64,000 bases of DNA, from the NCBI GenBank assembly GCA_963823555.1, contig CAWGMA010000001.1, forward strand, positions 320,001 through 384,000, given 5' to 3'. The notes beneath the pieces are model-generated. The model had not been told where the DNA came from. It searched no databases and saw nothing but the letters and a program-made list of their open reading frames with translations. Made by a program: the position numbers and the translations under genes. Of the stretch, positions 13,609 through 58,346 are shown piece by piece (within the stretch, counting starts at the first letter, position 1; the number at the start of each line of letters is the position of its first letter). Source of the DNA: Candidatus Eiseniibacteriota bacterium. Lineage in GTDB: Bacteria > Eisenbacteria > RBG-16-71-46 > CAVPCR01.

Positions 13609-14232
13609 ATGCGTTACGCGCCCGTAGCGATGGCCTTGTTGGCGCTCTGTCTCACGACGACCGCCTTTGCCGGCCAGAACCCGAACGTGACCCTGCCGAT
13701 GCACGGCAAGACCTCGACCTTCGAGGCTTGCGACGGCTATCTGCCGGTCGATTGCCTCAGCAATCGCCCGACGGTGAATCTTCCCGCTGGTCCCATCACG
13801 GTTTTCCTCTTCGTGATGAACTACGACTGCGTGGCTGGTGTGCAGACCGCATTCCAGCCGGCTGCTACGTGGACCTTCGGGTTCGGCCTCTGGGATTGCC
13901 AGCCGGGCCAGCTGAGCGCCGTGACCCCGGCCGCGCCCTTCGGGCCGACCAGCGGTACGATCACGACGGCCTTCAACTTCCTCAACGGTCCGGCTCTCGG
14001 AGTCGTCGGCCGCATGGTTTTCGTGAACACGGTTAGCGGCTGCGTCGAGCAGGTCCAGTCCAGCTATCCGTTCGAGAACCACGTTCTCGACTGCCAGCAG
14101 GGCATCGACCAGGTGGTCGAGGGTGCTCGCATGGGCAAGATCTGCGTCACCGAGGGTGGCGTGGATGCCTGTGAGCCGCTCGTGGCGGTGGAGCCGGCGA
14201 CCTGGGGCGGCATCAAGGCGCAGTACAACTAG
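13609..14232 (+). CDS. Secreted Cys-rich beta-sandwich (cohesin-like) protein with C-terminal TWGxIK motif
   Basis: Signal peptide ending AFA; AGGAGGT RBS; close paralog of 24375..25010; ends AVEPATWGGIKAQYN. Confidence 0.82.
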   Translation: MRYAPVAMALLALCLTTTAFAGQNPNVTLPMHGKTSTFEACDGYLPVDCLSNRPTVNLPAGPITVFLFVMNYDCVAGVQTAFQPAATWTFGFGLWDCQPGQLSAVTPAAPFGPTSGTITTAFNFLNGPALGVVGRMVFVNTVSGCVEQVQSSYPFENHVLDCQQGIDQVVEGARMGKICVTEGGVDACEPLVAVEPATWGGIKAQYN

Positions 14233-14277
14233 CTCTCCGAGAGCCGCGGGTAGCCTTCCCGGCTCGGCCGGATGATC

Positions 14278-14324
14278 AACGATCGAGGGCGGCTTCTTTC
14301 GGGAAGCCGCCCTCGTCGTTCTTT
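14278..14324 (+). terminator. Intrinsic terminator
   Basis: CGAGGGCGGCTTC / GAAGCCGCCCTCG 13-bp stem followed by TCGTTCTTT. Confidence 0.8.
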
Positions 14325-14425
14325 GCCTTGGAGATGGGACACCCGGCGTGGGGTAGTACGCCTTGCCCTCTCGGAGCCCGAGCGCTAGAATCCCCCGTCA
14401 TTCTCCCTCGCCGGCTGCATGGCTC

Positions 14426-15315
14426 ATGGTGATCAATCAACGGACTTCCATTCTCCTCCTGGGTCTGTGACCCTTTCGCTGGTGCTTTGCGCCCCGACCG
14501 CGGCTCCGGGCGGCGGTTCCGAATCGCCCCTGACGTCGGCTACGGCCGCGGGCGACTCGGCTCGTGCCGGCATCGCTCCCGGCGGCACCCGCATCGGGAC
14601 GCATGAGCTCCCGCCGGAGGCGCCCGATCCGCGTGCCTACCGGGACACGACGCTCACCTACGAAGAGCAATCGAAGCTCGATGAGAGACTCCGGCACGAG
14701 CGCAAGCTGGCAGCGATCGATTCGCTGGATCTCAACCACCATGTCACGCTGGCGCTGCATGCCGCTCCGGCGAGCGAGCGCCGCACCCCATCCGAGATTG
14801 CAGCGCTTGCCCGCGACTGTGAGCATCTCGTCACCGCCGTTGCACCCGGGGACTGGGACATCTTCCTGATCGCGAGGGGGTTCGATCTCCTGAACGGGGT
14901 TTCGTTCACTCTGGCCTGGCCCGAGGACTGGATCGTCCGCGGCTTCAGCCTCAACCCCGAACTGAAGGTGCCCTTCGCCATGGGCGATGTCGGCGCCGGA
15001 TCGGCGCGTCCCTACATGGTCGTCTTCAATTGTGTCGCCCACCCGGAGCGGGAGCCGATGGTGCCGAAGGGTGTCCTGTACACGACCGGCGACCGGGTCG
15101 TCATCGGTCATCTCGAGGTCACGGCAATGAGTCCGGGGTCGCTCACGATCGAGGACAGCGCGAATCCGGACTACGGTCCGCCTGAAGTGTCGAACTGCTG
15201 GAACACGACTCAGGACATACCCGTCACCGCCCGCGGCCGCATCGATGTCGGCTCGGGCCCGGGACTACGGCCCTGCGACGCCGTCCGCCCGCCGGCCGCC
15301 GAAGGGAAACCCTAG
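14426..15315 (+). CDS. Secreted protein, divergent paralog of the Cys-rich family without the TWG tail; probable -1 frameshift near 14467 in the signal peptide
   Basis: C-terminal half (VTLALHA, DIFLIARGFDLLNGVSF..WP, VFNC, GRIDVG..PCD) aligns by eye with the 13609 and 24375 proteins. ATG 14426 gives MVINQRTSILLLGL, which joins VTLSLVLCAPTAA into a signal peptide if one G is restored. Confidence 0.65.
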
Positions 15316-15341
15316 TCGAGGCTCTGCCGCCGGAAGTGCCC

Positions 15342-17108
15342 ATGAAGTCAAGAATGTCCTTTCCAGTCATGGCTGCGTGCCTGTTCGCTCTGTGTCTCGG
15401 GGCCGCCACGATCGAGGCGTGGGGATCCGGGCCGGCTTCGGGAGCCGCTCCGAGCGGGGCGCCGACCGATGTCGTCGCCCGCATCGGTGACGTCGCCATC
15501 GATCGAGCGACCTTCGAGGCCGAGTTCGCCCGCAGCCAGCGCGACACGACCAAGCCCAGGAGCGATCTCGAGGCCCGACAGGAGTTCATGGAGTCGCTCG
15601 TGAACCGCTACCTCCTGGTCGCGGCGGCGCGCGAGGCCGGCTACTTCGAGCCGGATTCGACCCGCGACTACATGATCAAGGGCTTCGAGGATTCGCAGCT
15701 CATCACCATGGTCCGCGACCGGGAGGTGCGCTCGAAGATCGAGGTCACCCCCGAGGAGGTCGAGGCCTACCACGCCAAGTCGGCCGAGCTCTTCGACATG
15801 AGCCAGATCATCGTCGCCACTCGCGAGGAAGCGGAGGCGGTGATGAAGCGGTTCGATGCCGGAGAGGACTTCGCAACCGTCGCTCGCGAGGTGTCGCTCG
15901 ACATCAAATCGTCAGACAAGGGGGGGCAGGTCCCGCCATTCGCCTGGGGCATGACGAGCCTGTCTTTCCTCGCTGCACTCGACGAGATGAAGCCCGGTGA
16001 GATCCGCGGCCCGATCGAGAGCGAGGCTGGTTACCACATCATCCAGCTCCACGGAATGCAACGCAATCCGAACTACGAGCCGCTCAACGATGGACAGCGG
16101 CCCTATGTCGAGTATCGTTGCCGCCTGTTCAAGGAGATGGAGCTCACCAACGAGTTCTACGCTCAGCTCAAGGAGCGTTATCATTTCTCGCCCAACTGGC
16201 CTGCTGTCAATGCGCTGGCCCGGATCTTCCGCGATGCTGTGGCCGCCGCGGTGGAGAACAATCCGCACGCGAGCCGGGAGGATCAGGAGGAAATCGCCAA
16301 GCGCAGTGTCGTCCTCGAGGATTCCCTGCTGCGGCAGCCGATCGCAACCTGGGATTCCGGCTACTTCCTTGTCTTCGAGGACTGGCAGTTCGTGAGCCAG
16401 CTCCCCGGCCTGGCCATCGTCGACCGGCGCAACCCGCACTTCATCGTCGGTGATGCAGCCGCCGACTTCTATCGCGCGGCTCAGGCCATGGAGGCCCGGG
16501 CCAAGGGCTACGACAAGGAGCCGGAACTTCGGCGGGGGGTCGAGCGGAAGCGGGAGGAGATCGCAGTCTCCCAGTTCTACACAACCGAGATACTGGGGAA
16601 GCCGCAGTTCACTGCTGCCGAAGAGCGGGAGTACTACGAGCAGCATCCCGATCAGTTCATCATCGAATCGCAGGTCAAGCTGGCCTGCCTGCAGTACCAG
16701 GCCGATCCGGCGGCGGCAGCGGCCATGGAGGACGCTTTACGGGGGTCGGCGAGCCCAGATTCCCTGCTGAAGGAGCACATGGCACGGGGACTCATCCGGA
16801 CGCAGACCCCGGAAGGCAAGTGGTTCAACGACCAGCAGCACCCCATCATCTTCGGCAAGGCCTGGCCGATGAAGACCGGTGAGATCGGTCGCGTGATCGA
16901 TGAAGAGGGATACTGGACTGTGTTCGTCGTGCTCGACCACCAGGAAGGCCGAATGGCTGCCTTCGATGAGGTCAAGAAGACGGTGCAGACATCGCTCCGC
17001 AACATCAAGGCCGATGAGATTCTCAAGAACATGCTCGCAGATCTGCGTGTCAAGTACCCGGTGTGGGTCGATCCGGCATATGTCCGGAACACGGGAGGGT
17101 CGGAATAG
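15342..17108 (+). CDS. SurA/PrsA-like peptidyl-prolyl isomerase (parvulin) foldase, secreted
   Basis: Signal peptide; VVARIGD; GEDFATVAREVSLD..S.DKGG; GPIESEAGYHIIQL; second degenerate rotamase domain. Confidence 0.85.
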   Translation: MKSRMSFPVMAACLFALCLGAATIEAWGSGPASGAAPSGAPTDVVARIGDVAIDRATFEAEFARSQRDTTKPRSDLEARQEFMESLVNRYLLVAAAREAGYFEPDSTRDYMIKGFEDSQLITMVRDREVRSKIEVTPEEVEAYHAKSAELFDMSQIIVATREEAEAVMKRFDAGEDFATVAREVSLDIKSSDKGGQVPPFAWGMTSLSFLAALDEMKPGEIRGPIESEAGYHIIQLHGMQRNPNYEPLNDGQRPYVEYRCRLFKEMELTNEFYAQLKERYHFSPNWPAVNALARIFRDAVAAAVENNPHASREDQEEIAKRSVVLEDSLLRQPIATWDSGYFLVFEDWQFVSQLPGLAIVDRRNPHFIVGDAAADFYRAAQAMEARAKGYDKEPELRRGVERKREEIAVSQFYTTEILGKPQFTAAEEREYYEQHPDQFIIESQVKLACLQYQADPAAAAAMEDALRGSASPDSLLKEHMARGLIRTQTPEGKWFNDQQHPIIFGKAWPMKTGEIGRVIDEEGYWTVFVVLDHQEGRMAAFDEVKKTVQTSLRNIKADEILKNMLADLRVKYPVWVDPAYVRNTGGSE

Positions 17109-17110
17109 AC

Positions 17111-18880
17111 ATGGCATCCGCTACCAAGGCTCATCGCTCGAACAAGCTGATCCGATTCGTCGCCATCGCTGCCGCCCTGGCCACTGTCGCCTCGTGCAAC
17201 AGTCAGCGCAACATCGTGGCCAAGATTGGTGATCGCACGATCACCCGCACCGAATTCGAGGAGCAGTGGGCCAAGACCACGGTCATGCCCGGGACCAACG
17301 CTGATTCCCTCCGTGATGCTCTCTACGAGTCGCTCATCCACAAGGAGCTGCTCGTGCTCGCGGCCGATAAGCACGGGTACTTCGATGCGCGTGTCGACAG
17401 CATCGCGACCCGCTTTGGAGAGGACCTCCTCCGCAGCAAGGTCCGGCTCGACGAGTCGCACATCGACTCGACCGTTACCGAAGAACAGATCGCAGAGGCG
17501 TTTGCCCGGTCGCACAACGAGATGCGCATGCGTCACATCATCCACTGGGCCGAATCGTCGCTCGACTCCGCGCGTCAGCGCATCGATGGCGGAGAACCGT
17601 TCGCCCAGGTGGCGGCGGATGTCAGTCTCGATCAGCGTAGTGCCGCGGACGGCGGGCTCCTGCCCTGGCTCACCGATCGCCAGCTCATTCGCCAGTTCCG
17701 GGAGACTCTGGACCCGGTGACGATCGGGAAGGTGGTGGGACCTTTCGAAAGTCCGTACGGCTGGCACCTGGCCGTCGTGGACTCGATTCGCGAGCGGGAG
17801 GGTGCCGATCTCGATGCCGAGCGTGAAGGGATCCAGGCCGACATCCTTGCCGAGCGGCAGCTCGAACGGCGTACTGCGGCGCAGCAGGAGTATCGTCGCA
17901 AGTACGATTACAAGATCGACACCGACGCTGCCATGGCCACCCTGGCCGAGGCCGGAGCAGCATTCGAGAAATCGGAAGCCGACTCGGTGCTGCGGAACGC
18001 CCCACTCCACGAGCGTTGGATCCCGTCCGCTCCGGATCGCGAGCTCGCCGGATACAAGGGCGGCAAGATCACCGTAGCCGACTACGAGGACGCTCTCGAG
18101 GCCGGCGGCATTCAGTTTCTCGCTCGCCGGCTTTCACCCCAGGGAATCCTCAACGATCTGAACGAGATCTTCTACCAGGAAGCCCGACTGCGCGAAGCGC
18201 GGGCGCGTGGATACGACAAGGACCCCGAATGGAAGGAGCGCGGTGCGCTCAAGCGCGAGGAGCTGGCCGTCGACCGTCTCTACTCCGAGGATGTCATGAA
18301 GGGAGTCGCGTTCAGCGAAGCGGACTTGAAGGCCTACTACGACGAACATCCCGACCAGTTCCAGCAGCCGGAGGTGTTCCGCTACTCCTTCATCCAGGTC
18401 GATGACGCTTCGGTTGCCCAGTGGCTCGTCGGAGAGATGAAGCCGATCTCGAGGCTGGCTTTCAACCAGGAGGTCACGATCGATGAACGAAGGGAGGCGT
18501 CGGCGCTCTTCGACAGCCTCGAGGTCGAGGTCGGAAACACCGGTCATCTGCTGCGAGCGGTGCGGGATTCAGGGCGGCGCGAGGCCTCGACAGCCGGCGC
18601 CGTGGCCGAAGCCGCCCGCACGATGAAGCCTGGTGATATCGGGCATGTCGTCGAGGCCTACGGCGCACACACCGTCTTCATTCTCATCAGCCACGAGCCC
18701 AAGGGCACGCTTCCCTACGAGAAGGCCCGGGAGCGCGTGGAACGGACGATGATCAACGCCGAGTCCGAGTCCAGGCTGAAGACCCTGCTTGAGGACCTCG
18801 AGGCCGAGTTCGGGGTCGAGCGGTACCCGGAGCGGCTCGGGCCGTCCGCGGGTGCGGGAGAGGCCCCGAGCGGCGAGTAG
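17111..18880 (+). CDS. SurA/PrsA-like peptidyl-prolyl isomerase, probable lipoprotein
   Basis: Lipobox-like VASC; IVAKIGD; GEPFAQVAADVSLDQRSAADGGLL; GPFESPYGWHL; paralog of the upstream gene. Confidence 0.85.
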   Translation: MASATKAHRSNKLIRFVAIAAALATVASCNSQRNIVAKIGDRTITRTEFEEQWAKTTVMPGTNADSLRDALYESLIHKELLVLAADKHGYFDARVDSIATRFGEDLLRSKVRLDESHIDSTVTEEQIAEAFARSHNEMRMRHIIHWAESSLDSARQRIDGGEPFAQVAADVSLDQRSAADGGLLPWLTDRQLIRQFRETLDPVTIGKVVGPFESPYGWHLAVVDSIREREGADLDAEREGIQADILAERQLERRTAAQQEYRRKYDYKIDTDAAMATLAEAGAAFEKSEADSVLRNAPLHERWIPSAPDRELAGYKGGKITVADYEDALEAGGIQFLARRLSPQGILNDLNEIFYQEARLREARARGYDKDPEWKERGALKREELAVDRLYSEDVMKGVAFSEADLKAYYDEHPDQFQQPEVFRYSFIQVDDASVAQWLVGEMKPISRLAFNQEVTIDERREASALFDSLEVEVGNTGHLLRAVRDSGRREASTAGAVAEAARTMKPGDIGHVVEAYGAHTVFILISHEPKGTLPYEKARERVERTMINAESESRLKTLLEDLEAEFGVERYPERLGPSAGAGEAPSGE

Positions 18881-18975
18881 GGCTGCCAGGTGTGCCGGGA
18901 TGGGACAGGAAGTCCGGATCGAGACGGTCGCTGGCTCGGGAGCCGCGGATCCCCGCGGCTCCCACATCTCTTGAC

Positions 18976-19004
18976 TTGACTTAACCGGGTCGCTTCACTA
19001 TAGT
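18976..19004 (+). promoter_or_regulatory. Near-consensus sigma70 promoter
   Basis: TTGACT-N17-TATAGT. Confidence 0.7.
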
Positions 19005-19299
19005 TACAGCGTTAAGGACAGCTTAACCGCCTGCCCTGAGCCGCGCTGCGCACAACCCCCAAGCGGTCGGACCTCCTCCGACCCAGGAAAACACCGCATC
19101 GAACCTGGCTAACGATCTCGAGCACAACAGGGATTCCGCCATCTTGAGGCGGCAACCCAGGTTCCTTTTCCTCGAGCGGTCCGGAAACTGACTTTGATGT
19201 CCTGCTACCCAGTCCGCCCTGGGTGCTGAACACCTATCGAGTGGAGGCTCGTCTCCGAGTCTCCCGCATCGGACCCGAGGCGGGTCCGGAGGAATGAGC

Positions 19300-22200
19300 A
19301 TGCGGTTCCACACCTCGTGCCTCCCAGCGCTTGCCGCAGCCCTCATCCTGGCGGGGATGTCGCCCCCCGGAGCGGTGGCTTCTTCCTGGTCCCCTCGAGT
19401 GAGCGGAGATCCCGCGTTCGCCCGGATCACCGTGGAGTTCGAACCCGGCGACGTTGGTTTCAGCGCTCAGAGCGAAGGCCTGGAGATCGCCGAGGTCCTG
19501 ACCGCCAACGACCGCTGGCACTTCCCGGGGGCTCCGGACCTGCCCATCCTGAGGCTTGTCGTCCAGGTCGATGACGATTTCCGCGTCGAGGACGTGTTGA
19601 TCAGGAGCGAGGACGAGGTCTCGATGGGCAGGCATCCTCTGGCGCCCGCCGCGGCGGACGGGGGCGGAGAGCGTGTGGCCGATCCTGCGTTCTACGGGAG
19701 CAATGACTTCATTCCCCCGCGCGCGGCCGAGGTCGCCGGAGAGGCCTGGTCGAGAGGACGCCGCCTGGCCTACGTCACGATCTATCCCCTGCGCACGAAC
19801 CCGGTGAGCGGCGAGGTCATGCTATCGACCCGGCTCACCATCGAGCTCACCGGTCGCAGAGACGCCGCCGTTCACGGCCGGCGCCCGCGCCCGGTGCCAT
19901 GGGAAGCCAAGGTCGATGAAGCCCTCGGGCGGATCGCCGTCGACCTCCGCAGCTCCCCGGGCGCGAAGTCGGCGGCGCCGATGACAGGCGAAGTGGAAGG
20001 TTTCTGGAGCCCGACCTACCGGCCCACTCTCGATGGCAGCCCCGTCGAGTACGTGATCATCACCTCGGCCGCTCTCGAGCCGGAGTTCCAGGTGCTCGCC
20101 GACTGGAAGACCAAGAAGGGCGTGCAGGCCGTCGTGCGTACCCTCGAGTGGATCACGACGTCGTACCCGGGCGTCGACCGCGCGGAAAAGCTCAGGAACT
20201 TCGTCACCGATGCCTACGAGAACTGGGGCACGCTGTGGGTGCTTCTCGGTGGAGACTCCGATCAGGTGCCCTTGCGGTATGCGAGTCATGCCCTGAACAC
20301 ACCGCCCGAACCGATTCCCACGGATCTCTACTTCTCCTGTCTCGACGGCAACTGGAACGCCGATGGTGATGCCGTCTTCGGCGAAGGCATTCCCCCGGGC
20401 TATCCCGCCGGCGGGGATTCGGTCGACCTCGCGCCCGAGGTCTTCGTCGGTCGCGCCCCGGTCTCGACTCCCGCCCAGGTCGGGGTATTCGTCAGCAAGG
20501 TCATCGACTACGAGCAGGCCATCTTCGCTTCCAATCGCTATCCCAGCTCCGCGCTGCTCCTGGGTGAGCGGCTGTCCCCGTCATCGGACGGCGGGGCCTA
20601 CTGCGAGGATGTTCGCCAGCGCCTTCCCGCCGGCATGCGCGTCGTGCGGATGTACGAGGAGTATCCAAGCTATCCCGGCGCCTTGCCCGAGCTGCGCGTC
20701 ACCGTGATCGACTCGCTGAATGCCGGGTTCGGCCTGGTGCATCACGTCGGTCACGGCTACCGAAACACCATGTCGGTCGGCGACGGCACCCTCTCCAACG
20801 CCGATATCGACAACCTGACCAATGGCGGCCGGCAATCCGTGGTGTATGCCATCAATTGCTCGTCGGCCGCTTTCGACTACGCGGCCATCGGGGAGCGGTT
20901 CCTCAGGAATCTGAACGGCGGCGGCGTGGCCTACATCGGCAGCTCACGCATCGCCTCCTCGGGAGACTCTCGACCGTTCCAGAATGAATTCTACGAGGTC
21001 GTGTTCCAGGACAGCGTCACCTCGGTAGGGAAGGCGGTGGGATACTCCAAGCTGCCGTTCATTCCCGGCTCGCAGTCAGAGACATCCTACCGCTGGGTTC
21101 AGTTCTCCCTCACCTTGCTCGGCGATCCCGAGATGCCGATCTGGAGACGGGGGCCGACTCCGATCACCGTGACGAGCTCGCTCACGCATCCCCTCGGTAC
21201 GGCGAATTACACGGTCACGGCCACGGCCGGCGGCTCACCGCTCCCCGGAGCCCGTGCCACCTTGTGGAAGCAGGGAGACGCGTTTGCCACGGGGTTGACG
21301 CAGGGCAACGGTGTCGCCACCTTGCCGTTTCTCCCATCGTCCACCGGGAGCTTCCATGTGACCGTGGCGCGGCCGGACTATGCTCCGTCCCAGAAGGACG
21401 CGAACGCGGTCGGCGCCAGCAGCGCTTTCCTCTACATCACACAGGTCACGATCAACGACGACGCCATCCCGCCGAGCTCCGGCAACGGCAATGGACAGCC
21501 CGATGCCGGGGAGCGGGTGGAGGTCACGGTGCGTCTCCGCAACGACGGCAGCACGACGGCGACCAACGTGAACGGCATCCTGTCCGTTCTATCGGGAGGC
21601 GCTCACGCTACCATCTTCCAGGCCAACGCGAGCTACGGGACCGTGGCCGTGGGTGGGCAGGCGGTGGGGACCTACGTCATCGACCTCGACCGCGCGGCTC
21701 CCGACGCCTTCCAGCCGACTTTCCAGCTGGCGATCACCACCGGCCAAGGGGCCTTCAGCGACAGATTCGTACTCCCCGTGCGCGGCCATGACATCGAACA
21801 CTACGCCCATGTGCTCTCGGACCCGGCGCCCGGGGGCAACGGCAACGGAGTGCCCGAGCCCGGCGAGGCGCTCAGCTACCGGGTGACGGCGCGCAACAAC
21901 GGGACCGGGCGTGCCGACCAGGTTTCGTTCACCCTACGGGTCCTGAACCGCTTGACGTTGCTTCCCGATCCACAGGTCACGATCACGGACGCCAATTCGA
22001 GCTTCGGCAATCTCCTGTCCGGTGCCACCTTCCAGGGCGATGCTGTCGCCTTCACGCTCGCCGGTGGTGCCGTGGTCAACGATCTCCTGCTCGAGATCTC
22101 CTGGCGCGACGCGCGCGGCGCGCTGCATCTGGATCTCTGCGATCTGGTGCCCCCGGATCCGGTCGAGGAGATCCGGGCGGAGGGCCGAGTCTCGAGCATC

Positions 22201-24090
22201 ACGCTCGAGTGGACGGCGCCCGATTCGAGCGATGTCGCCGGCTATGATATCTACCGATCAACGAATGCCCAGGGCGGCTTCTCACGCATCAATGCTTTCA
22301 CCGCTCTCGGATCCGCCGTGTACGAGGACTCGAATCTGCCCTCCCTGACGCGATACTACTACTACGTGGTGGCGCGGGATCGCTCCTTCAACGAGAGCAT
22401 CGCTTCGCCGATCCTCTCGGCGACGACCACGCCGCCGATCGCCAGCGGCTGGCCGATCGAGATGGGACAGCAGACAGCAGCAGGTGTGGTCATCGATGAT
22501 CTCGATGGAGATGGTGACCTCGAGGTCGTGACCGGGGCCGATGCGATCTATGCCTGGCACAATGACGGCACCGAGGTGCGCGACGGCGACTCGAACCCGC
22601 TCACTTCCGGCGTCTTCGCCACCGACGGCCAGAACGGAGCCTTCGGATTCCATGCCACCCCGGCCATCGGGGACCTCACCGGCGACGGCGACATGGAGAT
22701 CGTGGGCCTGGCCTGGCGCGAGGCCCGGGTCTATGTGTGGAACATCGACGGCTCGCTCGAGCCCGGCTGGCCGCAGACGATAGGCGGCGACTTCAACTGG
22801 GCATCGCCCGTCATCGAGGATCTCGACCTCGACGGCGACATGGAGATCGTCGCCCCATCGGGCATGACCGGCCGCATCTTCGCCTGGCACCATGATGGTA
22901 CCGAGGTGGCCGACGGCGATTCCAATCCCGCGACACAGGGCATTCTCTTCGTGACCGGCAGTTCCTTCCTCTACTCTTCGCCGGCGGTGGGCAACATCGA
23001 CGCAGACGCCTATCCGGAGATCGTGTTCGGCACGCAGAGTTCAGGAGGATTCGTCTATGCGATTTCGGGCATCACGGGCGCCGTCAAGCCCGGCTGGCCC
23101 CGTGAGACGCACAGCCAGGTGACCGCATCGCCCGCGCTTGCCGACTTCGACAATAACGGGTCCCTTGAGGTCGTGATCTGCTCCGAGTCCGACTCGGTCT
23201 ACGTGCTCCGGGGCAACGGGACCGACTATCCGGGCTGGCCCCGCCCCGCCGTCGTCAACTCCGACTTCGGACACACGAGCTCGCCGGTGGTCGCTGACAT
23301 CGACGCGGACGGGTTCCTCGATGTCGTCTTCGCCGCGAACGATGGCCACATGCATGTGTGGAAGCGCGATGGCTTGGTGGTGTCCGGATGGGCCAATGTT
23401 CTCTTCGCCCAGGACGCCCTCAATGCCGATGTGACGCAGTCGACGCCGACCGTGGCCGATCTGGATTCGGACGGTCGGCTCGAGATCGTGGTCGGCGCCG
23501 AGAACGGGCTGATCTACGGCTGGAACCACGACGGGACCTCGTTGGCCGGGTTCCCCATCAGCATCGGCGGCGAGCAGCGAAGCGCGGTCACCCTATGGGA
23601 TGTCGACCAGGACAACTTCGTCGAACTTCTGGCCACCTCCAACGACCGCAATTTCTATGTCTGGGATCTCGCCGGCGAGTTGCGCGCCGATAGGATCCCG
23701 TGGCCGTTCTTCCGTCATGACTCGCGGAACACCGGCCGCTTCGATGCGAAGTTCACGTCGATCGGCATCGCCGACGCCGAGCCGGTCCCGGCGGTGCTCC
23801 AGACCCCGGTCCTCCTCCCGGCCTTCCCGAACCCGTTCAATCCGGCCACCACCATCCGTTTCGTCGTACCGGGAGAGCGGGCCGGTTCGCGGCGGGTCGA
23901 GCTCCGGATCTACGACGTCGAGGGACGGCTGGTCCGGAACCTGGCCAGTGGCCCCTTCGAGACCGGGGAGCATGCGGTCGTCTGGGATGGGCGGACGGGA
24001 GCCGGAGGCCGGGCTGCCAGCGGGGCCTATTTCATGAAGCTGGAAGTGGATGGGGAGGTTCGCACCGGGAAGCTCACCCTTCTCCAGTAG
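19300..24090 (+). CDS. Gingipain-type C25 cysteine peptidase: propeptide, C25, Ig/CARDB-like domains, FN3, FG-GAP-like propeller, T9SS/FlgD-type C-terminal domain (alternative start 19294)
   Basis: YVIIT, LADWKTKKG, VLLGGD, TDLYFS.LDGNW, VFVGR, HVGHG (His), INCSS (Cys), LLGDP; DxDGDGxxEIV repeats; C-terminal FPNPFNP..IRF..IYDVEGRLVRNL..WDG..SGAYF. Confidence 0.88.
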   Translation: MRFHTSCLPALAAALILAGMSPPGAVASSWSPRVSGDPAFARITVEFEPGDVGFSAQSEGLEIAEVLTANDRWHFPGAPDLPILRLVVQVDDDFRVEDVLIRSEDEVSMGRHPLAPAAADGGGERVADPAFYGSNDFIPPRAAEVAGEAWSRGRRLAYVTIYPLRTNPVSGEVMLSTRLTIELTGRRDAAVHGRRPRPVPWEAKVDEALGRIAVDLRSSPGAKSAAPMTGEVEGFWSPTYRPTLDGSPVEYVIITSAALEPEFQVLADWKTKKGVQAVVRTLEWITTSYPGVDRAEKLRNFVTDAYENWGTLWVLLGGDSDQVPLRYASHALNTPPEPIPTDLYFSCLDGNWNADGDAVFGEGIPPGYPAGGDSVDLAPEVFVGRAPVSTPAQVGVFVSKVIDYEQAIFASNRYPSSALLLGERLSPSSDGGAYCEDVRQRLPAGMRVVRMYEEYPSYPGALPELRVTVIDSLNAGFGLVHHVGHGYRNTMSVGDGTLSNADIDNLTNGGRQSVVYAINCSSAAFDYAAIGERFLRNLNGGGVAYIGSSRIASSGDSRPFQNEFYEVVFQDSVTSVGKAVGYSKLPFIPGSQSETSYRWVQFSLTLLGDPEMPIWRRGPTPITVTSSLTHPLGTANYTVTATAGGSPLPGARATLWKQGDAFATGLTQGNGVATLPFLPSSTGSFHVTVARPDYAPSQKDANAVGASSAFLYITQVTINDDAIPPSSGNGNGQPDAGERVEVTVRLRNDGSTTATNVNGILSVLSGGAHATIFQANASYGTVAVGGQAVGTYVIDLDRAAPDAFQPTFQLAITTGQGAFSDRFVLPVRGHDIEHYAHVLSDPAPGGNGNGVPEPGEALSYRVTARNNGTGRADQVSFTLRVLNRLTLLPDPQVTITDANSSFGNLLSGATFQGDAVAFTLAGGAVVNDLLLEISWRDARGALHLDLCDLVPPDPVEEIRAEGRVSSITLEWTAPDSSDVAGYDIYRSTNAQGGFSRINAFTALGSAVYEDSNLPSLTRYYYYVVARDRSFNESIASPILSATTTPPIASGWPIEMGQQTAAGVVIDDLDGDGDLEVVTGADAIYAWHNDGTEVRDGDSNPLTSGVFATDGQNGAFGFHATPAIGDLTGDGDMEIVGLAWREARVYVWNIDGSLEPGWPQTIGGDFNWASPVIEDLDLDGDMEIVAPSGMTGRIFAWHHDGTEVADGDSNPATQGILFVTGSSFLYSSPAVGNIDADAYPEIVFGTQSSGGFVYAISGITGAVKPGWPRETHSQVTASPALADFDNNGSLEVVICSESDSVYVLRGNGTDYPGWPRPAVVNSDFGHTSSPVVADIDADGFLDVVFAANDGHMHVWKRDGLVVSGWANVLFAQDALNADVTQSTPTVADLDSDGRLEIVVGAENGLIYGWNHDGTSLAGFPISIGGEQRSAVTLWDVDQDNFVELLATSNDRNFYVWDLAGELRADRIPWPFFRHDSRNTGRFDAKFTSIGIADAEPVPAVLQTPVLLPAFPNPFNPATTIRFVVPGERAGSRRVELRIYDVEGRLVRNLASGPFETGEHAVVWDGRTGAGGRAASGAYFMKLEVDGEVRTGKLTLLQ

Positions 24091-24374: not shown

Positions 24375-25010
24375 GTGATGCGCTTCGCTTTTGCAGCGGT
24401 GGTCCTGGGTGTCCTGCTCGGTATGAGCGGGATGGCCCTTGCTGAGAACAATGACTGCGTGACGGTTGTGCTCCATGCCGCTTCCGGCATCGACACCGAC
24501 TGCCAGACCGATGTCGATTGCACCGCAGTGCAGCCGACGACTCGGATCGACGGCCCGGTCGGTCTCTACACCGTCGTCATGTACCTCCGGAACTACGACG
24601 AAGTCAACGGCGTGCAGGTCGCATTCGATTGGCCAGGGACCTGGTCCTTCGGCTTCGGCCTCTGGAACTGCCAGACGGGCCAGCTCTCCGCTGTCACCCC
24701 GACCGCACCCGGCCCGCTGTCGGGCAGCATCACCACCGCGTTCAACTTCATCACCGGTGGTGCGCTGGCTCCGGTCGGCGTCATGGTCTTCAACTCGCTC
24801 GGCGTGGACGGCTGCCTGTCCATCATCGAGTCGGAGTATCCGTTCGGGAATCACGTGATCAACGGCAACGTGACTCCGCCGGAGACCGCGATTCGCGACG
24901 AGAACGAGGGCAAGATCTGCGTTGCCGCTGATGGTTTGAACGCTTGCGAGTGCGTACCTGAGGCTGTTGAGCCGGCCACCTGGGGGCAGATCAAGGCCAC
25001 GTACCGCTAG
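24375..25010 (+). CDS. Secreted Cys-rich beta-sandwich (cohesin-like) protein with C-terminal TWGxIK motif
   Basis: Signal peptide ending ALA; WSFGFGLWNCQTGQLSAVTP and ITTAFNF shared with the 13609 protein; ends AVEPATWGQIKATYR. Confidence 0.82.
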   Translation: MMRFAFAAVVLGVLLGMSGMALAENNDCVTVVLHAASGIDTDCQTDVDCTAVQPTTRIDGPVGLYTVVMYLRNYDEVNGVQVAFDWPGTWSFGFGLWNCQTGQLSAVTPTAPGPLSGSITTAFNFITGGALAPVGVMVFNSLGVDGCLSIIESEYPFGNHVINGNVTPPETAIRDENEGKICVAADGLNACECVPEAVEPATWGQIKATYR

Positions 25011-29494: not shown

Positions 29495-32400
29495 CTAGTC
29501 GCGCGAGCGCACCAGCCGGCCGGTGAATTCAGCCTCATCGAGCGGCCACTTGGCCGTGAGCCGGTAGACATAGGTGCCGTTGGCCACCTGGTCGTGGTCG
29601 GCATCGAGTCCATCCCACACGATCTGCGAGTAGCCCACGTTGCGCGGTGCCGTCAGCTCCTGGATCTGGCGGCCGGTCACGGTGTAGATGCGGACCACGA
29701 CCTCATCCGCCGGACTCGTGAGCTGATAGGTGATGGCCGTGAACTGGTCGAAAGGATTGGGATAGGCCGCCACCTGCTCGAGGCTGAATCCACCCACCTG
29801 TACACTGACGCCGCTCGTGAGCGCGAGGATCCCGTTGTGCCTGATCTCGAGGCTCAGGTCGTGGGCCCCCGTGCCGAGGATGACGGGCGCTCTGAGCTGC
29901 CAGTCCTTGCCCAGCGGATCCCTGCTTTGCCCGCTGAGCCCGGCCACCGGGGAGCCATCGAGGAGCAGGCGGAAATCGCCCTCCGTCACGCTCACCGGCG
30001 CATGCACGTTGATCTCGATGGTGGTGCTCGAGGCCACGAAGTCGCCGCTGCCGAGCGCCACGCCATTGGCGCGCCAGCTGACATCCGTGCGCACGGCGAG
30101 CGGGAACTCGATCGTGCGGTTGTTGGCGTCGTTGGCGACGACGACGATCTCGTAGTTGTCGGGACGCAGCGGTGCGCGGTAGGTGAGCCGCCGTTGCCGT
30201 TCCTCGGTGCCCGTGACCTGCCACAGCGCCGGATCCACCGGGATCGGCCCGGCATCGCTGCGCTCGATCACCTCTGTATCCGCGATGCGCACCTCGTCGC
30301 GGATGTCGGCTACCACCAGTACCGTATCAGAGCCCGCGGCGAAGCTCTCGATGCGCGCGCCGGGAGCCCGAGTGGTGTCCGCCGCGGTGACCGCGAAGAG
30401 CGGCGGGATCGCATCCATGCGGAGACCGGGATCCCCGAGCGTGCAGTAGGTGAAGATCGGCCCCTTGAACGCGTCCTGCTGGTTGTAGAGCTCCTTGGCG
30501 AGATTCGTCACCTCGCCCAGGATCCAGCGCGCTCCCACCGGCTCGCCGCGCGGATTCTCGGTGGGCGGGGTCAGGAAGAAGGCGTCCCACTGCGGCGTGT
30601 TGAGGTCGTACTGGTAGGGCGGTCCCTGGCTGCTTCCCGCCGGCAGCCATTCGAAGCCCGTCGAGCCGATCGCGGCCACCAGGCCCCGGTTCTCCAGCGA
30701 TACCAGGAGCTCGCCGAGCCCCCGCTCGCGCCCGCCGACGACGTTCCCGATGCGCTCGTTGAGCTCGTTCAGGTGGTTGGGATGGCAAGCGTAGATGAAC
30801 CAGATCCCGGGGCGCCCGAGGTTATTGAACGAGTTCTGATCACGATCGAACTCGGAGGAGAAGATGCGTTCGTGCGCCATCAGGTGCCGGTTGGCATGTC
30901 CCTGGTAGTTCATGATCAGGTTCCCCTCGGAGATGAGCTGGTAGAGGATCGGGGAACCGGTGGCGTCGAACGCCGCCTGCGCCTCGCCGGGCGTGTGGGT
31001 GCCGGGGTCATCGGGTGGGGGTGGTCCGGGAAGGGGATCGGTGTAGGTCGAGAGACGTATGGCGCGCGTATCGATGAGATCGCCGATTCCCGACCGCTCC
31101 TCGATCATGGCGTCGATCGAATCGCAGATCGCTCCGAAGATGACCTCGCTCGCTCGATACCGGTACTGGGCGCTGAAGCTGATGGTCGAGGACCAGGCAT
31201 CATCGGCGATGGTCAAGGTCTTGGCCCGCCAGCGGTCGCCGGGGTCGAACTGCTCGTAGCGGATCGTCTTGTCGACCATGAGCCCGAACTCGGCCGCCGA
31301 CTGCGCCGGCAGCCGGCCGACGGCCATGTCGAGGTGCACGTCGAACTGTTCTTCCTCCGGGGCGAGGCCGGAGACGTACCAGGTGTCGCAGGACACGAGC
31401 TCCAGATCCACATCGCCGAACACCGGACCGAAGATGGTCTGGCTCGGGATCACATCGAGCCCGGTCGGCACCTTGTCCCGGTAGTCGTCCGAGGCGTCGC
31501 CCGCCAGGAGGAGGTACATGGGCGGTTGAGTCCAGTGGGCAAAGGCATAGCGCAGGTAGTTGCGAATGGCGTCGGGGCCATGGAGGCCGCCCGCGAACTC
31601 ATCCTCGATGTCGGAGAGGAGGGCGATCGCCGCCTGGTGGCCATGCAGCTCACGATGCTCCTTGAGCCGCGTGGCCACGGCGGGGAAGTCGTCCAGCGCC
31701 CCGTCCCCGTCGATGTCTGCGATGTCCGGCACGACGATGATGTAATCGGGCTCGATGGCCGGGCTGGCCAGCGACGAGGGACGATCGAGGGCGATCGCGG
31801 CATCGGTCAGCGTCAGCTCGCCCAAGCCCCGCGCGAGGGCGATGTAGGAGCGGAGGCCGGTCACCTCGTCGCGGAAGCGCACCTCGTAGGGCCCGCTACC
31901 GGTGACCTGAACGCCCGTCAGCACGGTCGGCGCGAAGTAGTTGGTGACATCCAGGACCACGATGTCCGCCGCGCTGAAGCCGCCGATCGCGAACTCGGTG
32001 GGACCGCTGGCCGCGCCGGAGTTCATGATCAGGCGGTCGTTACGCGCCTGGTAGAGGTGGTGGTAGGCGAACTCGAACCAGTCGAAGTTGGCTCCGGCAT
32101 AGGTGACGACCTGCGTCGTGTCCTGGACCGGCATGCGCTCCCCGATGAACTTGAAGCTCGAACCGGGCCGGGTGAAGGTCGAGGCCGGGAAGGGCGCGCT
32201 CTCCCAGTCACCGATGGCCAGATGTCCCGTGAACCCCCACCGCGTGGCCAGCGTGTCCTCACCCTGCGAACTCGTGATCAGGAAGGTCCCGAGATGCCGG
32301 AAGCCGTCGATTCCGGACACCATGCGGGTCCGGGCGCGGATCGGTTGCGAGGGATCGACATCGGCCCCGGTCAGGTCGTAGGGGAATACGAAGCTCACGC

Positions 32401-38005: not shown

Positions 38006-39371
38006 ACCAGCGCGGATCGAGCCGCGCACTCTCAAGGGGTTCCGCGACTTCACGCCGGAGCTGATGATCGCCAAGGAGGCGATGATCGAGATCATCCGGG
38101 GTGTGTTTCGCTCGTTCGGGTTCGTGCCCATCGATACCCCGGCGCTCGAGTACACGGAGATCCTCCTCGGCAAGGGTGGTGGGGAGACCGACAAGCAGCT
38201 CTATCGATTCACGGACCAGGGCGGGCGCGATGTCGCATTGCGCTTCGATCTGACGGTTCCCTTTGCCCGTTTTGCGGCTCAGCATGGGCGAACTCTCGGG
38301 ACGCCCTTCAAGCGCTACCACCTGGGTCCGGTCTGGCGCGGGGAGAACACGGCCCGGGGCCGCTTTCGCGAGTTCTGGCAGTGCGATTTCGACACCATCG
38401 GCACGCGCTCGCCGCTGGCCGATCTGGAGACCGCGCTCGTCATCGACCGCCTCCTCGTGGCGCTCGGCGTCACGCGCTTCGAGCAACGGCTGTCCGATCG
38501 CGGCGTTCTGGCCGGGTTGCTCGATGAGCTGGGTCTCGCCGGTGAAGCCGCGCCGGTGCTGCGTGCGCTCGACAAGCTGGACAAGCTGGGGCGCGATCAA
38601 GTGGCGCGGGAACTGGCCCGGGAGGCCAAGGCGGCCCCGGCCACCATCGATGCCATCTTCGCCTTTGCGGGGGAGAAGGGAGAGGCCGCGGATCTCCTGG
38701 CGCGTCTCGGCAAGCGGTTCCGAGACCATCCTGTCGCCCAGACCGGGATCTCGCGCCTGGGCGTGATCACGAGCGGGCTCGAAGCGGCCGGTGTCCCACC
38801 GGACCGCTATCGCATCGACCTCGGGCTGGCTCGCGGCCTCGACTATTACACGGGGACCATCTACGAGACCGTGCTCCGGGACGAGCCGGGGCTGGGCAGC
38901 GTGTGCTCGGGGGGGCGCTACGACAACCTGGCCTCGCTCTACACTCGCGACGTGCTACCGGGGGTTGGAGCCTCGCTCGGCCTCGACCGCTTGCTGGATG
39001 CTCTCGACCGGCTCGGGCTCTCGGCGCAGGGGCAAGCAACGGCCAAGGTGCTGGTCGCGATCCTCGACCCGACGCGCTGGATCGACTATGTCCGTATGGC
39101 GGAAGAGCTCCGCGCGGAGGGCGTGCCGACGGAGCTCTATCCCGACGAACACCGGCTCGACCGGCAGCTGCGCTATGCGGATCGCAAGGGCATTCCGCTG
39201 GTCGTGATCGCCGGTGAGGATGAGCTCGACCGTGGCACGGTCGCGGTGAAGGACCTGAGGACCGGTGCGCAGCGCAGCGATCTCGCCCGCGCCGGATTTG
39301 CGGCGACGGTGGCGGCCATGCTGGCCACGACCGGTCCGGGCCCAGGAGCGACGGAGGCGCCCAGAGCATGA
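37998..39371 (+). CDS. hisS: Histidine--tRNA ligase
   Basis: KGFRDF, LRFDLTVP, RGRFREFWQCDFD, RGLDYYTG, GGRYDNL, anticodon-binding domain. Confidence 0.97.
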   Translation: MNEPARIEPRTLKGFRDFTPELMIAKEAMIEIIRGVFRSFGFVPIDTPALEYTEILLGKGGGETDKQLYRFTDQGGRDVALRFDLTVPFARFAAQHGRTLGTPFKRYHLGPVWRGENTARGRFREFWQCDFDTIGTRSPLADLETALVIDRLLVALGVTRFEQRLSDRGVLAGLLDELGLAGEAAPVLRALDKLDKLGRDQVARELAREAKAAPATIDAIFAFAGEKGEAADLLARLGKRFRDHPVAQTGISRLGVITSGLEAAGVPPDRYRIDLGLARGLDYYTGTIYETVLRDEPGLGSVCSGGRYDNLASLYTRDVLPGVGASLGLDRLLDALDRLGLSAQGQATAKVLVAILDPTRWIDYVRMAEELRAEGVPTELYPDEHRLDRQLRYADRKGIPLVVIAGEDELDRGTVAVKDLRTGAQRSDLARAGFAATVAAMLATTGPGPGATEAPRA

Positions 39372-47824: not shown

Positions 47825-47848
47825 CCCTGAGGCGGCGCCGCGCCTAGG

Positions 47849-48722: not shown

Positions 48723-49663
<941 letters not shown>

Positions 49664-49667
<4 letters not shown>

Positions 49668-51793: not shown

Positions 51794-51835
51794 CCTGCGT
51801 TGGCCCCGGGCTCGAGTCGACTCGACTGTTCGCGG

Positions 51836-54499: not shown

Positions 54500-54692
54500 C
54501 GGGTCCTCACCGGCGAGAGAAGGGAGCTGGGGTGGTGTCCGCCGGATCTTCCATGGCGAAGGCGGACGCTAGCACACTCCGGCGCCACCCGGGGGCGGGT
54601 CCCCCGGGGGCGAACGTGCTACGATCCCCGGTCGCTCCGGTGCCGCCGGGTCGCAGGCGGGCGGAGCCATCACAAGGAGGGGCCGGAAGTCC

Positions 54693-55709: not shown

Positions 55710-55834
55710 ATGGGGCACAGCCCATGACCGGAGCGGGGAATCCGCTCGACATCACGTCGGCTCCGGCCGATAACGCCCGGTAGCGGTCTCGTCCCCCCCC
55801 GAGCCACGATCTGGCGCCACCTCACAGGAACAAC

Positions 55835-56503
55835 ATGCCATCGCCCGTCGGACATAGCCTCGCCGGCCTCGTCGTCGGCCATCTGACTCAGCTGTGGCCG
55901 GGCCGCCGCGAGGCGGCCTCCGGTCCCGGCCGGCGCTCGAAGCTGGGCGGATTGCTCTTCCTCGTGATGCTCGTCTTTGCTGCCAACGCACCCGATCTGG
56001 ACTTCCTTCCAGGTCTCCTGATCGGTGATCCCGACCGCTTCCACCATGGTCCCGCCCACAGTCTCGGCGCCGCGATCCTGTTCGGTGTGGTCTCGGGGCT
56101 CGTGGCCCGGTTGTGTCGCGCCCGCCACCCGCTGCAGGTCGGAGTGGTCATGATGCTGGCTTTCAGCTCGCATCTCTTTCTCGACATGTTCTCGCTCGAC
56201 CGCCGGCCACCCAATGGCGTACCTCTGCTGTGGCCGCTCACCGGGCACTACTACGTCGTGGCCTATCCGCTGTTCCTCGATGTCCAGAGGAGCCCCGACC
56301 AACCCAGCTTCTTCTTGAGCCTCTTCGTCGTGCACAACCTCCGGGCCATGCTCTGGGAAATGGTCGTGATGGGACTGGCCCTGGCTTTGACCCGCCTCGT
56401 GGTCTACGGTGCGCATTTGCTGGGTTGGGGAAGGCCCATGCCGGCCCCGAGCGTGCCGCCCGCCGCCCGCGAGCTGAGTCGCGAAGAGGCTCTGCGGCCG
56501 TAG
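55835..56503 (+). CDS. Membrane metal-dependent hydrolase (YdjM-like)
   Basis: SPVGHSL, APDLD, FHHGPAHSL, SHLFLD, LLWP. Confidence 0.85.
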   Translation: MPSPVGHSLAGLVVGHLTQLWPGRREAASGPGRRSKLGGLLFLVMLVFAANAPDLDFLPGLLIGDPDRFHHGPAHSLGAAILFGVVSGLVARLCRARHPLQVGVVMMLAFSSHLFLDMFSLDRRPPNGVPLLWPLTGHYYVVAYPLFLDVQRSPDQPSFFLSLFVVHNLRAMLWEMVVMGLALALTRLVVYGAHLLGWGRPMPAPSVPPAARELSREEALRP

Positions 56504-56545
56504 CGAGGCGAACCGGAGACGGGGCGGAGATCCGGGAGAGAGATC

Positions 56546-57739
56546 GTGCCGACTCATCTCGCCATCATGGATGTGACCCCCGACAAACGGGGGTCGTTCG
56601 AGAACTACGCCGTTCGCTTGGCTGAGCGCCTCGAAGCCGCGGGATGGCGCTCGATCGCCGCGTTCTGGGGTCGCCCCCCGCGCTGGCTCGAGGCCGAGCT
56701 CCGGCGCGCCGGGTCGGAGCTGCTCGTGCTCTCCGAAGAACCCGAGCTCGGAGGCCGGGACGAGTGGCCGGCCGGGCCGGCTCGGGACCTGGCCATGGCC
56801 CGGCTCTTCCGCCGGCTCGCGCGCGTCATCTCCCCCGATGTGGTGCACCTCCACTTCTGCGTCGTGTTCTCGATCCTGCCGCTGGCGCTTCACCTGGGGG
56901 GCGCTCGGCACATCGTGGCCACCGAGCACATCTCGCTGCCCTTCGCCCGGCGGTCGTTGCTTCGCGACACCGTGGCGCGCGCGCGGAACGCGGTCTCCCT
57001 CCGTCACGTCGATCGCATCCTGGCCGTGTCGGGCTGGGTGCGCGAGCGGCTACTGGTCTCCGATCATGTTGCCCCGGACAAGGTCTCGGTCCTGTACAAC
57101 GGAGTCGATCTCTCCCGATTCCAGCCGCTCGACGAGCCGGTGGCGGCCGTGCGCGAGCGGTTGGATATCCCCGCCGGGAACCAGGTCGTGATCTGTGTCG
57201 GCCAGCTCATCGACTTCAAGGGCATGAACTACCTGATCGATGCCGCTCACCTGCTCCGCGACCGACCCCACCTCACCGTGCTCGTGGTCGGGGATGGCGA
57301 TCGCCGTGATGCGCTCGCCGCACAGGTGGAGCGCCTCGATCTTGCCGGTCGCGTGCGCCTGCTCGGGAAGCGCGATGACGTGCATGCCCTCCTCGCCGCC
57401 GCCGACCTCTTCGTCTGCCCATCGGTGTGGGACGAGGCTCTGGGTTACGTGATCCTCGAGGCCATGGCCGCTGGTCTGCCGACCGTGGCCAGTCGAGTCG
57501 GCGGCATCCCGGAAGTCGTTCGCGATGGCGAGACCGGTCGCCTCGTCCCGCCGCGAGATCCAGGTGCCCTGGCGCGGGCGATCGCGGATCTCCTCGACCA
57601 GCCGGATCTGCGCGCGGTCATGGCGCGGACGGGGCGTCGCGTCGTCGAGGAGCAGTTCACCATGGACAAGGCGATCGCGGACACCGCGACGCTCTATGCC
57701 GATCTCACCGCCGACTCTCGAGCCGCGCCCGCTGGATGA
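56546..57739 (+). CDS. Glycosyltransferase family 4
   Basis: YNGVD, VGQL..FKG, PS..DEALG..ILEAMAAGLP.VAS.VGGIPE. Confidence 0.92.
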   Translation: MPTHLAIMDVTPDKRGSFENYAVRLAERLEAAGWRSIAAFWGRPPRWLEAELRRAGSELLVLSEEPELGGRDEWPAGPARDLAMARLFRRLARVISPDVVHLHFCVVFSILPLALHLGGARHIVATEHISLPFARRSLLRDTVARARNAVSLRHVDRILAVSGWVRERLLVSDHVAPDKVSVLYNGVDLSRFQPLDEPVAAVRERLDIPAGNQVVICVGQLIDFKGMNYLIDAAHLLRDRPHLTVLVVGDGDRRDALAAQVERLDLAGRVRLLGKRDDVHALLAAADLFVCPSVWDEALGYVILEAMAAGLPTVASRVGGIPEVVRDGETGRLVPPRDPGALARAIADLLDQPDLRAVMARTGRRVVEEQFTMDKAIADTATLYADLTADSRAAPAG

Positions 57740-57797
57740 GCCACCCGAAGCTGGATCCCCTGGCCTGATCGAGGCCGGATCTGATAGAATCAAGCCG

Positions 57798-58346
57798 ATG
57801 TACCGCTCCACCCGCATTCGCCGCACGCTCCTGGTAGCCACTCTTCTCGCCATCGCCCTTGGTTCCCGGAGCGCGGCCGATCCACCGGCCATCCTCACGC
57901 TGCCCGCAGCGAGTGGCCAGGTAGGAGAGCGCATCCAGATCGCGCTCGATATCGCCGACGCCGACAGCATGCAGGCGGGACAGATCGACATCGCCTATGA
58001 TCCAGACCGCGCGCGTCCCCTTCCCGAAACACTGGAGCCTGGAGCATTCGGCAGCGTGCCGCCCGCGGCGTGGATCGCCTCGACGCCGGCCGATTCCATC
58101 TTTCGCATCGTGTTCTCGACCGCCGATACGACCGGATTCGTCGGCTCCGGCACGCTCGCCCTGTTCGATGTCGACTTGCTGGGTGAAGGGACGTCGCCCC
58201 TCTCGTTCCGGACGATCGTGCTCGAGCGGGTCCCGAATCTGATCCTCCCGGCGGAGGGCATCGACGGATCGATCACGGTCATCCCGGTCCCCGTCGAGGC
58301 CCTGACCTGGGGCCGGATCAAGCAGCGCTTCGCCGGCGCTCCGTAG
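57798..58346 (+). CDS. Secreted cohesin-domain protein with C-terminal TWGxIK motif
   Basis: Signal peptide; cohesin-like pattern G..GE.I.I.L.I...AGQIDIAYDP...GSGTLA.F...G.SPLSF...DGSITV; ends PVEALTWGRIKQRFAGAP. Confidence 0.8.
   Translation: MYRSTRIRRTLLVATLLAIALGSRSAADPPAILTLPAASGQVGERIQIALDIADADSMQAGQIDIAYDPDRARPLPETLEPGAFGSVPPAAWIASTPADSIFRIVFSTADTTGFVGSGTLALFDVDLLGEGTSPLSFRTIVLERVPNLILPAEGIDGSITVIPVPVEALTWGRIKQRFAGAP

Follow-up and report, generated by a model that had tools for sequence, protein, structure and literature searches.

Three genes in a 64,000-nucleotide stretch of the genome of a Candidatus Eiseniibacteriota bacterium (contig CAWGMA010000001.1, positions 320,001 to 384,000, here called the window) encode exported proteins that end in similar short peptides built around Thr-Trp-Gly, and they raise the question of what this "TWG tail" is and what it does. 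The first tail, AVEPATWGGIKAQYN, occupies 14185..14232 (+ strand, T of TWG at 14200), the second, AVEPATWGQIKATYR, 24963..25010 (+, T at 24978) and the third, PVEALTWGRIKQRFAGAP, 58290..58346 (+, T at 58305). All three lie at the coordinates given in the first-pass annotation of this DNA, in frame and directly followed by a stop codon, and their W, I and Y/F residues have the i, i+3 and i+7 spacing that it describes; a fourth match to the pattern in the window, at 38584, lies in a frame that does not end a gene there. Our analysis supports the view of the TWG tail as a C-terminal module that is portable, lacks a transmembrane segment and occurs on exported proteins. [quoted passage not shown] Because it is found where related proteins have the type IX secretion domain, it is likely a cell-surface address label.

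A C-terminal tail on many exported proteins

The source genome (4.62 Mb in 4 contigs, 67% G+C, 92.5% complete) has 3531 genes as called by our own codon-model script; 92 of them match [TS]-W-[GAS]-x-[IVLM]-K within their last 20 residues, far more than the three of the window. From the 6 internal matches in 1.15 million positions only 0.28 such endings are expected, so chance is excluded. The consensus of the tail is [AP]-V-E-P-x-T-W-G-x-[IVL]-K-x-x-[YF]-R, and the logo (n = 92) reads [PA]-V(78)-E(67)-P(48)-[SAT]-T(79)-W-G(91)-x-[IVL]-K-[AS]-x-[YF](75)-R. W and K, which the search pattern fixes, are present in 92/92 tails and G in 91/92; 7–9 residues follow the W in 73 of the 92. Our working set of 95 tailed proteins consists of these 92 minus one low-scoring match, plus four called genes found with a profile. 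Thirteen more open frames that the script did not call score high and at least one of them is spurious, so the true number of tailed genes is near 105.

The tailed proteins are small (median 234 amino acids, largest 488, 72 of the 95 no longer than 300). Judged by a crude hydrophobic-stretch rule and not by a trained predictor, 85 of the 95 have an N-terminal signal, as do 188 of the 239 CTD proteins described below and 1140 of 3197 other genes, an enrichment that the first-pass annotation had suggested looking for. A later transmembrane stretch is found in none of the 95, and a lipobox-like start in two. The tail had also been described as a short amphipathic helix with a basic flank and no transmembrane segment; after the W, the median hydrophobic moment is 0.54 and the net charge +2. 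In one probable lipoprotein with a tail (G000:C1:1651055-1652254, - strand, where G000 is the source genome and C1 a contig) a W-G-x-M-K-x-x-F repeat lies inside the protein as well, at residue 210.

The tail is not confined to one homologous family. Stripped of their tails, the bodies of the 95 proteins fall into 56 BLAST groups, the largest with 14 and 9 members, and 41 of the groups are singletons. Family scans, which searched NCBIfam with 75 of these proteins and Pfam with 65, plus the three window proteins, found various domains among the bodies (beta-helix, CHRD, PKD, lamin-tail, laminin G, DUF4397, DUF4350, DUF7450, cytochrome c and DVUA0089); most of the scanned bodies match no family. 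The tailed protein with a lamin-tail domain (G000:C1:312559-313191; loci L131-L133 and L135) is the only copy retained in four of the five tail-poor genomes examined.

The first-pass annotation had inferred portability from the window itself, since the third protein there is not a close paralogue of the other two. The first (13609..14232, + strand) is a small exported protein with a predicted cohesin-like beta-sandwich and belongs to a genomic set of 9 tailed paralogues. AlphaFold2 (AF2) models it with a mean pLDDT (predicted local distance difference test) of 91.8, the tail standing apart from the folded body as a separate short helix of low confidence (pLDDT 68–70); all top Foldseek matches are cohesins (E 8e-5, TM-score 0.45–0.66 by target length), so that by both methods it has a cohesin beta-sandwich, and no Pfam family matches it. 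The second (24378..25010, +) is a paralogue, 46% identical, directly downstream of a peptidase C25 gene. The third (57798..58346, +) most likely starts at 57798, which makes it 182 amino acids long, rather than at 57525; BLAST finds no paralogue of it elsewhere in the genome, and it resembles cohesins weakly (Pfam E 0.031, under the cut-off). With the first protein cohesin-like and the third a weak cohesin match, the window trio alone does not prove portability across folds; it is the genome-wide set that establishes it. The same cohesin-like domain also begins a 1093-amino-acid CTD protein (G000:C3:613992-617273).

Relation of the tail to the type IX secretion CTD

The source genome encodes, over the respective cut-offs, SprA, a canonical PorU beside PorV (C1:701103-705347, 475 bits vs a cut-off of 420) and six PorV-family genes, and 239 of its proteins carry a type A CTD. 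In their crude-rule signal peptides (85/95) and lack of later transmembrane stretches (95/95), the tailed proteins resemble T9SS cargo in a genome that encodes SprA, PorV and PorU. Tail and CTD exclude one another, with no protein carrying both (0/95), and the two are different objects: none of the 95 tails matches the genome's own CTD profile, AF2 predicts a helix, and motifs B and D of the CTD are absent from the tail logo, which has only a Lys near its basic end. CTD-bearing bodies are also larger, 140 of the 239 exceeding 490 amino acids.

The tail nevertheless stands where a homologue has its CTD. A CTD-bearing homologue exists for 36 of the 95 tailed proteins, and for 23 of them (8 groups) the alignment ends at the junction, beyond which one protein continues into the tail and the other into the CTD. 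Fourteen of these 23 swaps are in one beta-helix group; in other groups the identities reach 61, 68 and 76%. The likeness that had been noted between the start of the tail and the linkers of T9SS CTDs is borne out as well, since a small residue-Val/Ile-[E/D/G/A/S/P] linker precedes 162 of the 193 scorable CTDs vs 42% of control windows. When scored with the PorU cleavage motif T/E/D/N | G/A/S, as given in a passage of PMC10202324, 63 of the 193 CTD linkers have a strict site vs 19% of control windows.

The bodies resemble CTD cargo in composition too: the median Lys+Arg content is 3.4% in tailed bodies (n = 90), 5.3% in CTD cargo (n = 230) and 10.0% in other signal-bearing soluble proteins (n = 398). 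We take the low content common to the first two as a hint of a shared extracellular destination. A CTD gene is the neighbour of 33 of the 95 tailed genes, 68 of the 239 CTD genes and 344 of the 3197 other genes.

The motif fused to the CTD in metagenomes

A metagenome scan for W-G-x-x-K followed by PNPFN, a fused form not seen in the source genome, found at least 120 loci, 87 of them in frame among the matches listed. In 70 of these 87 exactly 8 codons separate the K from the PNPF of the CTD; the motif typically follows a V-x-P-x-G-K linker, and a few of the matches listed are due to chance. AF2 models of 66 fused sequences give the CTD a pLDDT of 83–95, and make the motif a loose 4-residue helix (about 61) outside the CTD fold; packing of the helix on the CTD, an arrangement we considered, finds no support in them. 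The Tyr/Phe-Arg ending of the tail is absent from the fused form. The motif therefore stands free as a linear element whether it ends a protein or precedes a CTD, and it lies C-terminal to the junction.

Distribution among genomes

Of 121 genomes of the phylum, 120 match the strict DNA pattern; the counts per genome run from 0 to 99 over the 121 (median 28), where a reversed-pattern control gives 0–2. A scan of one genome per species found at least 123 loci, with 116 in frame among the matches listed; the other 7 of the 123 listed are out-of-frame chance matches. Titles were available for 80 and, among the matches listed, name Eisenbacteria, Krumholzibacteriia, Latescibacterota, Fermentibacteria, Handelsmanbacteria and Melioribacteraceae. 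This range leaves out the records with Legionella, Reyranella, Elusimicrobia and Zixiibacteriota in their titles (1–3 matches, short contigs), and the titles "Fibrobacteraceae" and "Gemmatimonas" on records with 58–72% G+C are doubtful labels. SprA is matched in 36 of the 39 tail-bearing genomes behind the matches listed, in 32 of them over the cut-off; two of the three without a match have stray labels, and the third is a 2.0 Mb genome (G154).

A match, mostly a single one, is present in 97 of 101 genomes of the Ignavibacteria-type class, to which the Melioribacteraceae record belongs, and in 12 of the 13 loci examined it ends one protein of about 131 residues that consists of a signal peptide, one domain and the tail. 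Homologues of this protein are annotated as Ignavibacteria hypothetical proteins, and its domain directly precedes the CTD in two proteins of the source genome (30–33% identity). The gene (L226-L237, L359-L367) is single-copy and encodes 130–165 amino acids with an almost invariant ending; it usually lies upstream of a Maf-like gene (a label taken from sequence). A sample of a second phylum has the tail in 48 of 151 genomes. There, a PorU-type match is present in all 48 tailed genomes and in 65 of the 103 untailed ones, and the tail is absent from all 38 genomes without such a match. Another C25 family, with members of about 1700–1900 amino acids (L466, L469, L477, L481 and others) is found mostly in the tail-positive genomes of this phylum, an association confounded by lineage.

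When profiled against SprA and PorU in this way, the tail is found almost wholly in lineages of these samples that bear them. Kin genomes are not independent, so such profiles are only consistency checks. Among 15 matches on viral contigs, 6 are in-frame tails (L489, L491, L493, L495, L497, L502), five of them on one 241-amino-acid family with a signal peptide.

Comparison with known sorting signals

LPxTG, GlyGly-CTERM and PEP-CTERM are sorting signals with a transmembrane helix. The first-pass annotation had held that the tail fits none of the known signals, and the catalogues agree: no NCBIfam or Pfam model covers the tail in the scanned tailed proteins, when 65 tails were searched by themselves (E up to 10), no two had a family in common and none matched the PDB, and a search of the ESM Atlas gave no relevant match. 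The motif is likewise undescribed in the full-text literature searched, which included few subscription journals and no supplements, where domain tables could list such tails.

PEP-CTERM/exosortase systems are similar in that dozens of small exported proteins per genome have a common tail, and V-E-P-S-T resembles V-P-E-P-S-T. We rejected this assignment, since the TWG tail has no transmembrane helix and the source genome has no PEP-CTERM-like tail and no exosortase (a positive control was detected).

Among the closest known signals is the type A CTD (TIGR04183, PF18962; in the source genome the FlgD_ig-like PF13860 form), which is read by PorV and cut by PorU. Like it, the tail is C-terminal on signal-peptide proteins, follows a small-residue-Val linker and is found on the same cargo families, with the same composition and in the same genomes; its conserved Lys, close to a basic C-terminus, is reminiscent of motif E, though as a resemblance only. 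It differs in being about 16 residues long, a predicted short helix with no beta-sandwich and no motifs B/D, and in being restricted to small proteins. Passages of PMC11969387 describe short type A CTDs of Prevotella intermedia, 40–55 residues with three predicted strands and motifs B, D and E kept; these indicate that a T9SS signal can shrink and yet keep PT|GI-type cleavage, but those described there have no W-G-x-I-K. The type B (PF13585) and type C (ChiA) CTDs, given as about 100 residues or more in the relevant parts of PMC10202324, set a precedent in that one translocon serves alternative signals, and type B has PorP/SprF-like barrels to itself (same source); unlike these, the tail matches no Pfam or NCBIfam model.

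C25 peptidases and a candidate processing enzyme

The first-pass annotation had proposed a PorU-like C25 enzyme encoded in the window as a candidate processing enzyme of the tail, a suggestion that stands for one gene and not for the other. The peptidase C25 encoded at 19294..24090 (+ strand) has FG-GAP repeats and a type A CTD, is one of nine similar CTD-bearing paralogues and is probably T9SS cargo rather than a sortase; the canonical PorU lies elsewhere. The product of 29495..33712 (- strand) is a PorU paralogue with intact C25 His and Cys and a CTD. It reaches only 166 bits on NF033707, the PorU sortase model (cut-off 420), and is not the gene beside PorV; on sequence it is a fair candidate for the processing of tails, and no more than a candidate. 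A three-chain co-fold of tail, PorU paralogue and PorV scored 0.00, controls not having been run, which weighs neither for nor against the candidate.

This paralogue has a single match in 105 of the 121 genomes of the phylum; in the tail-rich family f15 it was matched in only 2 of 9 genomes with the query used. We inspected 20 regions of 19.5 kb around its orthologues. Recurring neighbours are a GGDEF homologue (14 regions), a TPR sigma-54 activator (12), which had been taken for an outer-membrane assembly barrel until that label was rejected, and a GWxTD protein (6), and SurA-like isomerase genes are often near. Nine tailed genes are present in five of the 20 regions, about twice a rough hand estimate of chance (3–4). 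Elsewhere in the source genome, six CTD-bearing C25 paralogues of about 1580 amino acids, all with catalytic His and Cys, lie within 29 kb (G000:C1:490075-519129).

Possible functions of the tail

The motif and its position, the exclusivity with the CTD, the paralogue swaps, the cargo-like composition and the distribution are established. On this basis we lean slightly towards the TWG tail being a sorting signal that replaces the type A CTD, directing its protein by a SprA/PorV-family pathway to the surface, with a PorU-type cut at the small-residue-Val junction. The tailed protein would first be exported by Sec, and its W-G-x-I-K helix would then be bound by a pocket on a T9SS component; an invariant W and K and a near-invariant G fit a specific protein pocket. 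The small protein would next pass the SprA translocon, and a PorU-type C25 enzyme may cut at the upstream junction, so that the protein is attached or released. The sorting, cleavage or attachment tag of the first-pass annotation is thereby supported in part, as a portable module of exported proteins that swaps and linker tie to the T9SS junction.

Several observations weigh against a sorting signal of this kind. As described in passages of PMC11969387 and PMC10202324, T9SS signals so far are folded beta domains of at least 40 residues, and the tail has no such fold. The fused form has tail and CTD together, an argument for the tail having a role that the CTD lacks. A strict PorU site ([TEDN]|[GAS]) stands ahead of the Val in only 21 of the 95 tails and a small residue in 44, and Pro occupies the would-be cut site in 38. 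PorK matches in the source genome are under the cut-off and PorM gave none, with a control that was silent everywhere (the genome being 92.5% complete, and PorL and PorN not searched). No PorV-family paralogue can be named as reader of the tail: five genomes with 0–34 tails share these paralogues alike, and none of them follows the number of tails. Distribution contributes further points. The genome G154 has 16 tails and no SprA match, whereas G092 has SprA and 65 CTD candidates and no strict tail; G092 is not a clean negative, as its loose-pattern count is near chance (78 vs 57 in the control) and yet includes one possible variant tail. Genomes of family f7 have 1–5 tails despite a T9SS, and the 65 PorU-positive genomes of the second phylum noted above have none. 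Tail and CTD counts (the latter first-look candidates) correlate with rho 0.74, but with only 0.21 once genome size is removed, and all of the distribution profiles are confounded by kinship. A passage of PMC3909097 reports that Por structural genes were not found in Poribacteria single-cell genomes.

Since its SprA, PorU, six PorV-family genes and 239 CTD proteins are accompanied neither by a PorK over the cut-off nor by a PorM match, the source genome possibly has a different T9SS motor, or none. Tentatively, one might go further and imagine that the type IX translocon of non-Bacteroidia members of the Fibrobacterota-Chlorobiota-Bacteroidota group takes signals of a fourth type, unfolded peptides of 16 residues used by about 100 small surface proteins per genome, with a dedicated second PorU and maybe without the PorK-N motor. 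The described T9SS signals are all folded domains, and a short stand-in peptide, if that is what the tail is, would alter current views on cargo selection by SprA and PorV; it would also provide a minimal tag for surface display, and thousands of hypothetical proteins from uncultured sediment and soil lineages (median 28 strict matches per genome, n = 121) would be re-annotated as surface proteins. Through its single conserved copy in the Ignavibacteria-type class, the tail could be put to the test in cultured relatives.

It seems unlikely that the tail is instead an uncleaved anchor, that is, a basic amphipathic helix that binds the outer membrane, lipopolysaccharide or a protein scaffold and keeps small acidic proteins in the envelope, export taking another route or ending in the periplasm. 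A hydrophobic moment of 0.54 and a net charge of +2 on very acidic bodies would suit such an anchor, as would the lack of transmembrane stretches, the rarity of lipobox-like starts (2/95) and the Pro at 38 would-be cut sites, but lipid binding would not require a Gly that is near-invariant and a Lys that is fixed. In the fused form, moreover, the motif is downstream of the junction and would depart with the CTD, and the strict exclusivity of tail and CTD in the source genome would go unexplained.

We think it improbable that the motif merely docks a sortase, placing the junction correctly on PorU or its conserved paralogue with no drive for translocation, so that a carrier would take tail-only proteins across. 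None of the source genome's 239 CTD proteins has the motif, and a carrier would have to be assumed; the paralogue was matched in few f15 genomes with the query used, and the tailed genes near it exceed the hand estimate only about twofold. Such docking would fit the fixed spacing of junction, motif and CTD in the fused form, in which the helix is loose and outside the CTD fold, and also the retention of the paralogue in 105 of 121 genomes and the tailed genes in 5 of its 20 surrounding regions.

SurA binds aromatic peptides, and SurA-like isomerase genes flank tailed genes in the window and in relatives, so a periplasmic handling tag may be imagined, in which a SurA-like chaperone or a C-terminal protease would recognise the aromatic peptide at the C-terminus, with no relation to passage of the outer membrane. 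This is very improbable, as the ordinary signal-bearing soluble proteins of the genome have no tail and a sharply different composition, and the tail swaps specifically with the CTD. A structural element of one family or a functionless remnant of truncated CTDs, which groups of 14 and 9 among the 95 proteins and a motif that can belong to the CTD N-terminus might suggest, is scarcely credible and has for the most part been refuted by the data already given (singletons make up 41 of the 56 groups, the predicted structure sets the tail apart from the body, the stop position varies little, the Tyr/Phe-Arg ending is absent from the fused form, and a single copy is conserved in 97 of 101 genomes of another class).

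Other genes of the window

Upstream of the first tailed gene, at 12682..13305 (+ strand), is a gene for an exported protein that ends in a duplicated dockerin-like loop motif and has no TWG tail. From its sequence it is a possible partner of the cohesin-like tailed proteins; its PDB dockerin matches are weak (E 0.38–1.3) and no Pfam family matches it. The pair recalls non-cellulosomal cohesin-dockerin pairs, in that a protein with a predicted cohesin fold adjoins a dockerin-like gene, but only 9 of the 95 tailed proteins are of this kind and the comparison accounts for the body and not for the tail. We rejected the dockerin-like gene as a phylum-wide partner, since only 8 of 121 genomes were matched with the query used and the orthologous locus of G083 is without a tailed gene. 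It has a paralogue at G000:C1:1231119-1231673 (- strand), and a homologous dockerin-like module stands just ahead of the CTD in large proteins of several relatives. Contigs of four RNA runs cover the 13609 gene, one without mismatch, and the dockerin-like gene is also covered; the runs were retrieved with this stretch of the window, and such contigs are not proof of transcription, nor are uncovered stretches evidence of silence.

Two SurA-like peptidyl-prolyl isomerase genes (15336..18880, + strand) and a gene for a GWxTD-domain TPR protein (34014..36116, +) are the window counterparts of the recurring neighbours of the PorU paralogue in relatives. The window also contains tRNA-Lys (280-355), a tmRNA (554-912, tag ANTELALAA) and tRNA-Val (12121-12197), the last just upstream of the dockerin-like gene.

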